Source of the DNA: Escherichia coli | GTDB taxonomy: Bacteria; Pseudomonadota; Gammaproteobacteria; Enterobacterales; Enterobacteriaceae | NCBI RefSeq assembly: GCF_003334785.1 | Contig: NZ_QOWV01000004.1 | DNA length: 64,000 bases | Direction: 5' to 3' (one strand) | In this document: in pieces, positions 32,310 to 64,000 of the stretch | How positions within the stretch are numbered: the first letter of the stretch is position 1 | Layout: each line of letters opens with the position of its first letter | The notes under the pieces: model-generated | What the model saw: the letters and a program-made list of their open reading frames with translations, nothing else | Told to the model about the DNA's origin: nothing | Databases searched by the model: none | Position numbers and translations under genes: made by a program

Positions 32310-32535
32310 GCTGCCGGATGCGGCGTGAACGCCCTATCCAGCCTACGGTTATGTTCCGGTTTGTAGGCCTGATAAGACGCACAGCGTCGCATCAGGCAAC
32401 GGCTGTCGGATGCGGCGTAAACGCCTTATCCGACCTACGGTTATGTTCCGTTTGTAGGCCTGATAAGACGCACAGCGTCGCATCAGGCAACGGCTGCCGG
32501 ATGCGGCGTGAACGCCCTATCCGACCTACGGTTAT
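32310..32535. repeat. BIME: cluster of about five REP palindromic units
   Basis: Alternating GCCGGATGCGGCGTGAACGCCTTATCCGGCCTAC-type and TGTAGGCCTGATAAGACGC...GCATCAGGCA-type units read directly. Confidence 0.85.
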
Positions 32536-62582: not shown

Positions 62583-63341
62583 ATGAGCCAAATTTTACTG
62601 CAACCTGCTAACGCGATGATTACGCTGGAAAACGTCAATAAATGGTATGGACAATTCCATGTTTTGAAAAATATAAATTTAACCGTGCAACCGGGAGAAC
62701 GGATCGTTCTGTGTGGCCCTTCAGGTTCCGGTAAATCGACAACCATTCGTTGTATTAATCATCTGGAAGAACATCAACAGGGACGGATCGTGGTAGATGG
62801 CATCGAACTTAATGAAGATATCCGCAATATTGAGCGCGTCAGGCAGGAAGTGGGAATGGTCTTTCAGCATTTCAATCTCTTCCCTCATCTGACCGTTTTA
62901 CAGAACTGTACCCTGGCACCGATTTGGGTACGCAAGATGCCTAAGAAAGAGGCTGAAGATCTGGCGGTGCATTACCTAGAGCGGGTGAGAATTGCCGAAC
63001 ATGCGCATAAGTTTCCCGGACAGATTTCAGGTGGTCAGCAGCAACGCGTTGCCATTGCGCGTTCGCTGTGTATGAAGCCGAAAATTATGTTGTTTGATGA
63101 GCCAACGTCGGCGCTCGATCCTGAGATGGTGAAAGAGGTGCTGGATACGATGATTGGGCTGGCGCAGTCGGGTATGACAATGTTGTGTGTAACACATGAG
63201 ATGGGGTTTGCACGAACCGTCGCTGACCGGGTAATTTTTATGGATCGTGGGGAAATAGTGGAGCAAGCTGCACCTGATGAATTTTTTGCGCATCCTAAAT
63301 CAGAGCGTACGAGGGCATTTTTATCGCAGGTAATCCATTAA
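62583..63341 (+). CDS. yhdZ: ABC transporter ATP-binding protein, 252 aa
   Basis: Walker [10 protein letters not shown], signature LSGGQQQR, Walker [11 protein letters not shown]. Confidence 0.9.
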
Positions 63342-63360
63342 TTGAATGTTAGTTCGAAAA

Positions 63361-63394
63361 GCAAAAAGGCCATCCTTTCGGATGGCCTTTCGCT
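63361..63394. terminator. rrn T2-like hairpin (AAAGGCCATCC-tttcg-GGATGGCCTTT), convergent terminator for rrnD and yhdZ
   Basis: Perfect 11-bp-arm hairpin with T-rich flank on both strands. Confidence 0.6.
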
Positions 63395-63523
63395 TGATTT
63401 GATGTCTGGCAGTTTATGGCGGGCGTCCTGCCCGCCACCCTCCGGGCCGTTGCTTCGCAACGTTCAAATCCGCTCCCGGCGGATTTGTCCTACTCAGGAG
63501 AGCGTTCACCGACAAACAACAGA

Positions 63524-63569
63524 TAAAACGAAAGGCCCAGTCTTTCGACTGAGCCTTTCGTTTTATTTG
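63524..63569 (-). terminator. rrn T1-like terminator immediately downstream of rrfF
   Basis: Minus-strand AAACGAAAGGCTCAGTCGAAAGACTGGGCCTTTCGTTTTAT, matching the well-known rrnB T1 sequence from memory. Confidence 0.7.
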
Positions 63570-63689
63570 ATGCCTGGCAGTTCCCTACTCTCGCATGGGG
63601 AGACCCCACACTACCATCGGCGCTACGGCGTTTCACTTCTGAGTTCGGCATGGGGTCAGGTGGGACCACCGCGCTACTGCCGCCAGACA
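63570..63689 (-). rRNA. rrfF: 5S ribosomal RNA (distal copy of rrnD), 120 nt
   Basis: Minus-strand match to E. coli 5S; carries U at position 3 (UGUCUGG) and GGCAGUAGCGC variant relative to rrfD. Confidence 0.9.
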
Positions 63690-63726
63690 AATTCTTTTCT
63701 AATCTGCCGAACTTTAACCTAAAAAG

Positions 63727-63802
63727 TGGTGCTGATACCCAGAGTCGAACTGGGGACCTCACCCTTACCAAGGGTGCGCTCTACCAACTGAGCCATATCA
63801 GC
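63727..63802 (-). tRNA. thrV: tRNA-Thr (anticodon GGU), 76 nt with encoded CCA
   Basis: Minus-strand GCTGATATGGCTCAGTTGGTAGAGCGCACCCTTGGTAAGGGTGAGGTCCCCAGTTCGACTCTGGGTATCAGCACCA. Confidence 0.9.
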
Positions 63803-63814
63803 ACGCTAAATTTG

Positions 63815-63934
63815 ATGCCTGGCAGTTCCCTACTCTCGCATGGGGAGACCCCACACTACCATCGGCGCTACGGCGTTTCACTTCTGAGTTCGGCATGGGG
63901 TCAGGTGGGACCACCGCGCTACGGCCGCCAGGCA
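63815..63934 (-). rRNA. rrfD: 5S ribosomal RNA (proximal copy of rrnD), 120 nt
   Basis: Minus-strand exact-looking match to canonical E. coli 5S (UGCCUGGCGGCCGUAGCGCGGUGG...). Confidence 0.9.
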
Positions 63935-64000
63935 AATTCTGTTTTATCAGACCGCTTCTGCGTTCTGATTTAATCTGTATCAGGCTGAAAATCTTCTCTC
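63935..64000 (-). other. 23S-5S spacer of rrnD (window ends before the 23S gene)
   Basis: Minus-strand GAGAGAAGATTTTCAGCCTGATACAGATTAAATCAGAACGCAGAAGCGGTCTGATAAAACAGAATT is the conserved spacer preceding 5S. Confidence 0.6.

Follow-up and report, generated by a model that had tools for sequence, protein, structure and literature searches.

Two terminators and a tRNA-linked repeat between the distal 5S gene of Escherichia coli rrnD and convergent yhdZ

How is the short stretch of DNA organized where an rRNA operon runs toward a protein-coding gene, and why does that stretch carry a second copy of the 5S rRNA tail? The question is raised by the 3′ end of the rrnD operon in 64,000 nucleotides (nt) of E. 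coli DNA (contig NZ_QOWV01000004.1, assembly GCF_003334785.1), called the window here. On its minus strand lies rrfF, the distal 5S gene of rrnD (63570..63689; 89.1 bits against the Rfam 5S model, coordinates from the MG1655 annotation). On its plus strand lies yhdZ, a listed open reading frame (ORF) specifying an ABC transporter ATP-binding subunit (62583..63341; so named in MG1655 and further E. coli genomes), which ends in a TAA stop at 63339-63341 and is convergent with rrnD. The window maps to the yhdZ/rrfF-thrV-rrfD region of MG1655, and adding 3359853 to a window position gives the NC_000913.3 position. The interval 63342-63569 is confirmed as the 3′ end of rrnD, with the order T1, rrF, T2. 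Our reading, which we hold to be very probable, is that this end is built as an intrinsic terminator, T1, a tRNA-linked repeat (TLR), rrF, and a further terminator, T2, and that T2 also ends the yhdZ mRNA.

T1 begins almost immediately after the 5S gene. Only CAA separates the end of rrfF, at 63570, from the T1 stem, which starts at 63566. The terminator (63566..63523, minus strand) has a 20-bp stem and a GAAA loop, the 3′ arm of the stem ends UUUUAU, and the tail CUGUUGUUUG follows. A consensus terminator scan flagged T1 on the minus strand, where its minimum free energy (MFE) is -32.7 kcal/mol (z = -9.4; all z-scores are against dinucleotide shuffles). The plus-strand face, a hairpin followed by UUUUAUUUG, reaches -33.0 kcal/mol (z = -9.8); across T1 and T2 on both strands, hairpin z-scores run from -4.9 to -9.8. 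A T1-like hairpin had been predicted at 63524-63569 from the letters of the window; it is present, with the stem now placed at 63566..63523. T1 is 100% identical to rrnB T1 in the K-12 alignment. One of the six differences between the window and MG1655 is a compensatory pair in its stem, at 63559/63530, and more such pairs are seen in other enterobacterial copies. Cambray et al. 2013, who used and measured rrnD T1, noted that rrnB and rrnD are distinguished by a compensatory mutation low in the T1 stem, at its base. The efficiency of rrnB T1 is about 87% (Orosz 1991, via Stenum et al. 2021, PMC8144298). By analogy, T1 at rrnD is probably leaky and would hence gate entry into rrF.

The rrF body follows on the minus strand as a G+C-rich stretch of 108 nt (63415..63522), delimited by folds, TLR homology, and the published small RNA (sRNA). 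The original prediction had placed a GC-rich stem region downstream of T1; at 63522..63415 several hairpins are indeed predicted, located at about 63503-63492, 63487-63465, 63462-63448, 63447-63437, and 63436-63418. The 129-nt stretch 63522..63394 has an MFE of -56.3 kcal/mol (z = -4.1), and 0 of 200 shuffles are as stable. In the predicted closing helix, 63521..63508 (UGUUUGUCGGU) pairs with the repeat at 63413..63400, in a manner that resembles helix I of 5S rRNA (the 5S 5′ end, for comparison, is UGCCUGGCGGC). The same closing helix occurs in the TLRs of tyrT and Superficieibacter and in the Rfam RtT consensus. Five GGA motifs start at 63490, 63476, 63471, 63443, and 63428, three of them in predicted loops. 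Similarity of the body to rrfF by local alignment is not significant, with 1462 of 2000 shuffles reaching its score. Two candidate 5S relics within the body, GAGTAGG and UGUUUGUCGG, were rejected: they have a 5S-like look, but they align no better than shuffles. The predicted helix-I-like pairing with the repeat is the only 5S likeness of the body that survives, as a structural observation. Among 5S-linked homologues the body is nearly invariant and gives little covariation signal (+0.43); across TLR subfamilies, covariation is visible in the third hairpin, where it was not formally scored.

The second 5S tail forms the 3′ repeat of the TLR. It reads AACTGCCAGACATCAAAT (63397..63414, minus strand) and consists of 13 nt of the 5S 3′ end, in the A117 allele, plus a CAAAT flank. 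Its 5S portion, AACTGCCAGACAT (63414..63402), is identical to the 5S tail of the window at 12 of 13 positions and is followed by CAAAT; on the plus strand, 63401-63412 reads GATGTCTGGCAG. With up to 2 mismatches tolerated and 0.01 matches expected from shuffles, a search of the 64-kb window for the 18-mer AACTGCCAGGCATCAAAT returned three copies, each with at most 1 mismatch: one after rrfD, one after rrfF, and one before T2. The left-hand copy, flank included, is held by rrfF at 63565-63582. Repeat and rrfF end are identical at 17 of 18 positions in the window and at all 18 in MG1655, whose rrfF also has A. At 90% identity the direct repeat is 30 nt long, and its copies lie 168 nt apart.

The original prediction had seen here an 11-nt fragment of the 5S tail at 63401-63414 and had called it the vestige of a partial 5S duplication. 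The fragment is real, given the chance expectation for the 18-mer, and its length is 13 nt plus 5 nt of flank; its vestigial nature does not hold, the fragment being instead a TLR 3′ repeat beside a body of no significant 5S similarity. By its sequence, the footprint is best taken as the boundary of a 168-nt insertion or deletion, not as a decayed second 5S gene, because strains and genera that lack the module have the same sequence as the true rrfF 3′ end abutting T2. The 5S fragment is likely a functional boundary, at once RNase E site, 3′ strand of the closing helix, and recombination junction. By analogy, the repeat would be a putative second RNase E site and the right-hand boundary of the 168-nt module.

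The interval between T1 and T2 at rrnD is a known sRNA gene, rrF, and its product belongs to a set of RNAs called RrA/B/F (Stenum et al. 2021, PMC8144298). That paper assigns rrA, rrB, and rrF to the TLR family, first described at tyrT and present in K-12 as 22 copies at 10 loci, and gives as the hallmark of a TLR that the tRNA or rRNA gene preceding it ends in the same 18-19 bp as the TLR itself. RrA/B/F are reported as discrete RNAs by northern blots, S1 mapping, and circular RACE (rapid amplification of cDNA ends), with the ends mapped on RrB. RrB is 173 nt long; its 5′ end lies 3 nt after 5S, at a known RNase E site, and its 3′ end lies 3 nt after the repeat. There is also a shorter, unstable form of about 115 nt; in vitro, the RNA binds Hfq and CsrA, and for CsrA the binding needs GGA motifs. 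Transferring the S1-mapped RrB ends to the window places a putative RrF transcript at 63394..63566 on the minus strand, and its computed length, 173 nt, equals the published size. The 5S fragment and the G+C-rich region, taken together, are the known TLR sRNA gene, which the earlier reading had passed over.

The features of rrF agree with that assignment. It directly follows an rRNA gene, whose transcription unit and orientation it shares, its final 18 nt repeat the end of the upstream gene, and the sequence of its body is homologous to other TLRs. Specifically, local alignment of the rrF body with the tyrT TLR unit (GAACGTTGCGAAGCAACGGCCCGGAGGGTGGCGGGCAG versus GAGCGTTGCCGCAGGCAACGACCCGAAGGGCGAAGCGCGCAG) scores 29, versus 15.7 ± 2.3 for shuffles, a score that 0 of 2000 shuffles reach. 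Against the Rfam family RtT (RF00391), the four tyrT units score 133-137 bits, and RrF scores 17 bits, over model positions 42-89 only, versus a gathering score of 45. RrF is a relative of RF00391 and not a member of it.

Relatives also occur in metagenomes. Contigs were scanned with the core pattern GTTGC-N3-5-GCAACGRCCCGRAGGG, and the matches listed include 99 pattern matches in about 80 loci (L094-L173), 93 of them with enough downstream sequence to classify. In these 93 listed units, the core is followed by a third hairpin that varies in sequence and keeps its position. After that hairpin, 81 of the 93 carry a tag that is tRNA-Tyr-like (36 units), tRNA-Lys-like (18), tRNA-Arg-like (11), 5S (10), or tRNA-Pro-like (6), and the remaining 12 lie outside these classes; the classes are assigned by sequence pattern. 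Most listed units with enough upstream sequence have an exact copy of the tag 100-180 nt upstream. A few units, for example, those at L099, L123, L157, and L159, have the core and no recognisable stable-RNA tag or upstream repeat.

T2 (63356..63395, minus strand) is assigned from the terminator scan, from folds, and from homology to the T2 elements of rrnB, rrnA, and rrnG. Its core has perfect 11-bp arms, 63390..63380 and 63375..63365, around a GAAA loop, followed by the U-tract UUUUUGCUUUU at 63364..63354; an extended outer stem is predicted across 63395..63359. The minus-strand MFE is -24.9 kcal/mol (z = -5.9). The plus-strand face (63365..63391), followed by UUUCGCUUGAUUU, also matched the scan and folds at -22.6 kcal/mol (z = -4.9). 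Thus, as in the consensus scan, T2 is terminator-like on both strands and has a U-rich tail on each, the plus-strand tail being the weaker. A T2-like hairpin had been predicted at 63361-63394, 20 nt after the yhdZ stop; it is present, with its core stem beginning 24 nt after (23-24 nt past the stop). A hairpin with a U-rich tail on both strands at that distance would therefore form the yhdZ 3′ end. Published 3′-end mapping supports the sharing: the MG1655 Term-seq data of Adams et al. 2021 (supplementary file 1) give position 3423244 (window 63391) as a plus-strand 3′ end that is “primary” for yhdZ and reads ...GGCCAUCCUUUCGGAUGGCCUUUC. Together, T1 and T2 have the properties of an rrnB-type dual terminator, being two tandem hairpin-plus-U-tract signals that lie directly 3′ of the last 5S gene and are homologous to rrnB T1 and T2.

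All seven K-12 rrn tails were fetched and compared. The operons rrnA, rrnB, and rrnD have 5S, T1, body, repeat, and T2 in common; in rrnC and rrnH, the 5S gene runs through CAAATTAAGCAG into tRNA-Asp; and rrnE has an unrelated terminator. Between the window and K-12 rrnB, identity is 100% from the 5S end to the repeat. A G-to-A change in the repeat is the first difference, and others follow in the lead, loop, and tail of T2. The claim that the locus mirrors rrnB T1-T2 with sequence differences is borne out by this alignment, in which T1 and body are identical and T2 is homologous with differences. Sequences of this kind also turn up on plasmids: E. coli plasmid records hold 39-80 matches to the T1-rrF-T2 region, presumably cloning-vector rrnB T1T2 cassettes, and a 4.5-kb plasmid of Nissle 1917 has one 50-nt match.

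Across 63147-64000, the window and MG1655 have six differences, all in a 78-nt tract, 63496-63573, and these make T1, early rrF, and the 5S 3′ end of the window identical to rrnB. The tract looks like a gene-conversion tract. It includes position 117 of rrfF (window 63573), which is G here. The gene starts UGUCUGG (U3; window 63687), and the result is a U3-G117 wobble, whereas MG1655, Citrobacter, and Superficieibacter pair U3 with A117; rrfD starts UGCCUGG. The repeat before T2 keeps the A allele.

The unit that separates the two 5S tails is not present in every strain. A 551-nt query comprising yhdZ, T2, the module, and rrfF was run against 5,426 complete E. coli genomes, and it was covered by at least 80%, the limit for counting, in 3,239, which leaves about 40% without the module at rrnD. 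All 11 genome rows sampled from the remainder show a two-piece match of 383 nt, that is, 551 minus 168. A full rrF body anywhere in the genome is found in 3,942 of the 5,426 (megablast and blastn), and about 27% lack a full copy. The number of body copies per genome is 0 to 9; in carriers, it is 1 to 9, with a median of 2. In strains E110019 (L011 593-783) and A10 (L012 593-870), the rrnD tail reads rrfF(...CCAGACAT)-CAAATCAAGCG-T2, and A10 rrnD also lacks thrV and the second 5S. The sequence seen as a fragment in the window is the true 5S end in E110019, A10, Citrobacter, and Superficieibacter.

A genome scan anchored on yhdZ gave, among the matches listed, mostly Pseudomonas and alphaproteobacterial paralogue loci and five usable enterobacterial junctions, all at contig ends. 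Citrobacter werkmanii and Superficieibacter electus have rrfF with U3 and A117 and then the same T2 beside yhdZ. Superficieibacter electus (L015) also has a 5S-linked TLR, without a T1 hairpin, between its first 5S and thrV; the TLR has the conserved core and the 5S-end repeat, and its first and third hairpins differ in sequence and occupy the same positions. Three Enterobacter species have a T1-like or other hairpin and a separate yhdZ-side terminator. From these few taxa, the ancestral rrnD tail would be that of Citrobacter and Superficieibacter, namely, rrfF with a U3-A117 pair and T2 directly after it. We tentatively suggest, at slightly less than even confidence, that the 168-nt T1-plus-rrF unit is an accessory, recombination-mobile cassette and not a fixed part of E. 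coli rrn operons. On this view, the two 5S tails would be RNase E sites and would also mark where crossovers lead to gain, loss, or gene conversion. RrA/B/F dosage would then vary by strain between 0 and 3 or more copies. Some strains would have rrnD transcription arriving undiminished at the hairpin near yhdZ, others at about 13% of that strength, and CsrA tuning and yhdZ expression could be affected. The part of Stenum et al. 2021 (PMC8144298) that we cite does not mention module polymorphism.

A course of events for the rrnD 3′ end can be proposed. Most polymerases would stop at T1, just past 5S, as shown mainly for the near-identical rrnB terminator. Read-through of about 13% would yield a structured RNA of about 170 nt, starting from the RNase E site 3 nt past 5S, and this RNA, RrF, would end 3 nt past the 18-nt copy of the 5S 3′ end plus flank. 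The repeated 5S tail may supply rrF with this RNase E site once more at its distal end. T2 would stop the remaining rrnD transcription and probably also forms the 3′ end of the yhdZ mRNA; the plus-strand face of T1 could back up T2, keeping yhdZ transcription out of rrfF antisense. Finally, the 168-nt unit (T1, TLR body, and one repeat copy) may be gained and lost by recombination between the repeats or by rrn gene conversion.

Does the module between the terminators matter at all? The original prediction implied plain fail-safe tandem terminators, with the interval and its 5S fragment left as inert debris from a partial duplication of 5S long ago. Two terminators do stand in tandem, and the module is dispensable, given its absence from rrnD, or from the whole genome, in the strains counted above. 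Published phenotypes of RrA/B/F deletion and overexpression are, moreover, modest, as debris would have it (Stenum et al. 2021, PMC8144298). Still, the core and architecture of rrF are common to TLRs behind tRNA-Tyr, Lys, Arg, and Pro genes in many organisms, the rrF stretch folds far better than its shuffles, its body has no significant 5S similarity, and discrete RNAs with defined ends and with Hfq and CsrA binding are published; TLR homology already largely refutes the idea of debris, which we regard as very improbable. The same weak phenotypes would suit a TLR module that is mainly a selfish or neutral repeat propagated by recombination, spreading downstream of stable-RNA genes since its 3′ repeat matches their ends, with RrF RNA a by-product without selected function. 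Presence/absence boundaries that fall exactly at the direct repeats, copy numbers of 0 to 9 per genome, a tract identical to rrnB as gene conversion would leave it, and one core behind several tRNA species and 5S all fit such an element. We nonetheless think this unlikely: the core sequence is conserved, hairpin positions are kept across genera in spite of differing sequences, in vitro CsrA binding relies on GGA motifs, and the module always lies in the transcribed orientation inside the operon.

Another doubt concerns yhdZ. The plus-strand face of T2 might be only a stabilising hairpin: yhdZ transcripts would end downstream, whether at the plus face of T1, through Rho, or in collisions with rrn polymerases, and would then be trimmed back to the T2 stem. 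The plus-strand tail UUUCGCUUGAUUU is a poor, interrupted U-tract, and in Enterobacter species a separate terminator with a long U-run serves yhdZ. Nevertheless, T2 passes a simple terminator scan on the plus strand and is stable there, and the Term-seq authors class 63391 as the primary yhdZ 3′ end, so that we rate trimming as less likely, yet as a serious alternative. Several observations do weigh against the arrangement of T1, rrF, and a shared T2 as we read it. The yhdZ 3′ end appears in just one of three condition tables of Adams et al. 2021, with a low score, and it lies 4 nt past the G+C-rich part of the stem, where exonuclease trimming could have produced it. Supplementary file 1 of that study has no minus-strand 3′ ends at T1 or T2, its minus-strand ends being those of mature rrfF (3423423, window 63570) and thrV only; mapping of T1 to several rrn operons may be a reason. 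At T2, the minus strand has a suspected T2-containing precursor on a northern blot (Stenum et al. 2021, PMC8144298). In the same paper, the modest phenotypes of deletion and overexpression go in the same direction, which leaves the cellular role weakly supported, and RNase E cleavage at the second repeat is a suggestion of the authors. RrF coordinates come by homology, the RNA ends having been mapped on RrB and not on RrF, and about 27% of complete E. coli genomes do without any copy of the body. The shared, bidirectional terminator of the original prediction is accordingly half shown: 3′-end mapping, which it had proposed for both strands, documents T2 use on the plus strand, at 63391, and lists nothing at T1 or T2 on the minus strand.

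Other features of the neighborhood were scanned as well. Upstream of rrfF, the minus strand carries thrV and rrfD. A 245-nt direct repeat relates rrfF to rrfD across 63565-63946 (137 nt aligned, 97% identity), with thrV between the copies, and an identical junction of 5S end plus CAAAT stands before thrV, before T1, and before T2. Across 63342-63569, the Rfam scan gave no family at gathering score. Sub-threshold matches to mir-192, MicC, RNAI, and other families were set aside as hairpin or terminator look-alikes, RtT alone having independent homology. A search with ARAGORN for a decayed tRNA gene in the spacer gave thrV alone. The ORFs 63342..63722 (plus), 63338..63460 (minus), and 63490..63771 (minus) were taken as spurious, as they overlap rRNA, tRNA, and terminator sequence. 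Elsewhere in the window, at 32366-32526 on the minus strand, two adjoining matches to naRNA4 (Rfam, REP325-type) exceed the gathering score, at 77 and 71 bits.

What does the locus add? As a region it has little discovery value, being real, ordinary, and known: earlier publications describe the terminator region of rrnD and how it matches rrnB T1T2 by homology, as well as the second 5S tail and the sRNA gene rrF, and the presence or absence of the module at the population level is possibly the sole new element. Its practical interest lies in annotation and in vectors. RefSeq is blank between yhdZ and rrfF, and Rfam has no RrA/B/F family; therefore, scans keep re-finding the region. The same cassette serves as the rrnB T1T2 terminator in many expression vectors, so these produce an RNA that binds Hfq and CsrA. 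The strain counts suggest that about a quarter of sequenced E. coli strains can do without the sRNA, a point that bears on any function assigned to it.

Among known systems, the bidirectional terminators of convergent E. coli genes provide the closest parallel for T2. Like them, T2 is one perfect hairpin, A-rich on one side and T-rich on the other, and it is likewise flagged on both strands, with a plus-strand 3′ end mapped at the hairpin. Unlike the typical case, one partner of T2 is an rRNA operon whose transcription is mostly halted already by T1, the plus-strand U-tract is interrupted, and minus-strand use is undocumented in the Adams et al. 2021 table. A sequence-based study, cited in a preprint on repetitive extragenic palindromic (REP) elements, counted 306 bidirectional intrinsic terminators between convergent E. 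coli genes, and a preprint, to judge by its title, links RNA polymerase collisions to bidirectional termination.

RrF can also be compared to the CsrA-sequestering RNAs of the CsrB/RsmX type, with which it has GGA-in-loop hairpins in common. CsrB has many more sites than RrF and a higher affinity (Stenum et al. 2021, PMC8144298), and unlike RNAs of this type RrF has no promoter of its own and is made by terminator read-through. At window 63415-63492 on the minus strand, rsmX scores 18 bits versus a threshold of 56 (E = 0.07), which places RrF outside the CsrB/RsmX clan. The GGA-in-loop hairpins account for this weak rsmX similarity, which fits the CsrA binding published from in vitro work.

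The TLRs of tyrT-tyrV (RtT RNA, rttR; RF00391), like rrF, lie just 3′ of a stable-RNA gene, in units of about 170-180 nt. Both have the core CGTTGC-loop-GCAACG-RCCCGRAGGG and then a third hairpin, and in both, the last 18-19 nt or so duplicate the 3′ end of the preceding gene and pair internally to close the fold. They differ in that the 5′ half of rrF is unrelated to the tyrT units, and in that the latter stand in tandem arrays and have no T1-like terminator hairpin.

The nearest comparison is with the sister rrn operons. In rrnG, a T2-type hairpin comes straight after 5S, without exactly the 168 nt, the T1-plus-TLR module, that lie between the repeat copies, and the rrnG T2 and its lead (CAAAT..GCGAAAGGCCATCC...GGATGGCCTTTTTGC) are homologous to rrnD T2. 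This is the layout of the rrnD alleles of E110019, A10, Citrobacter, and Superficieibacter. Downstream of T2, rrnG has a REP element in common with rrnA; in MG1655, yfiS, a small annotated ORF, lies on the opposite strand just past the REP of the rrnG tail. The T1-T2 region of rrnB with rrB, and rrnA with rrA (Brosius 1981; Orosz 1991; Stenum et al. 2021, PMC8144298), have the same order as the rrnD tail. rrnB T2 is reported to terminate 100% of transcripts (Orosz 1991, via Stenum et al. 2021). The rrnD repeat has A where that of rrnB has G, at the position matching 5S nt 117; the T2 loop is GAAA in rrnD and UGAC in rrnB, and the 5′ lead and downstream sequence also differ. Past T2, rrnB is followed by the co-directional murB, whereas rrnD meets the convergent yhdZ.

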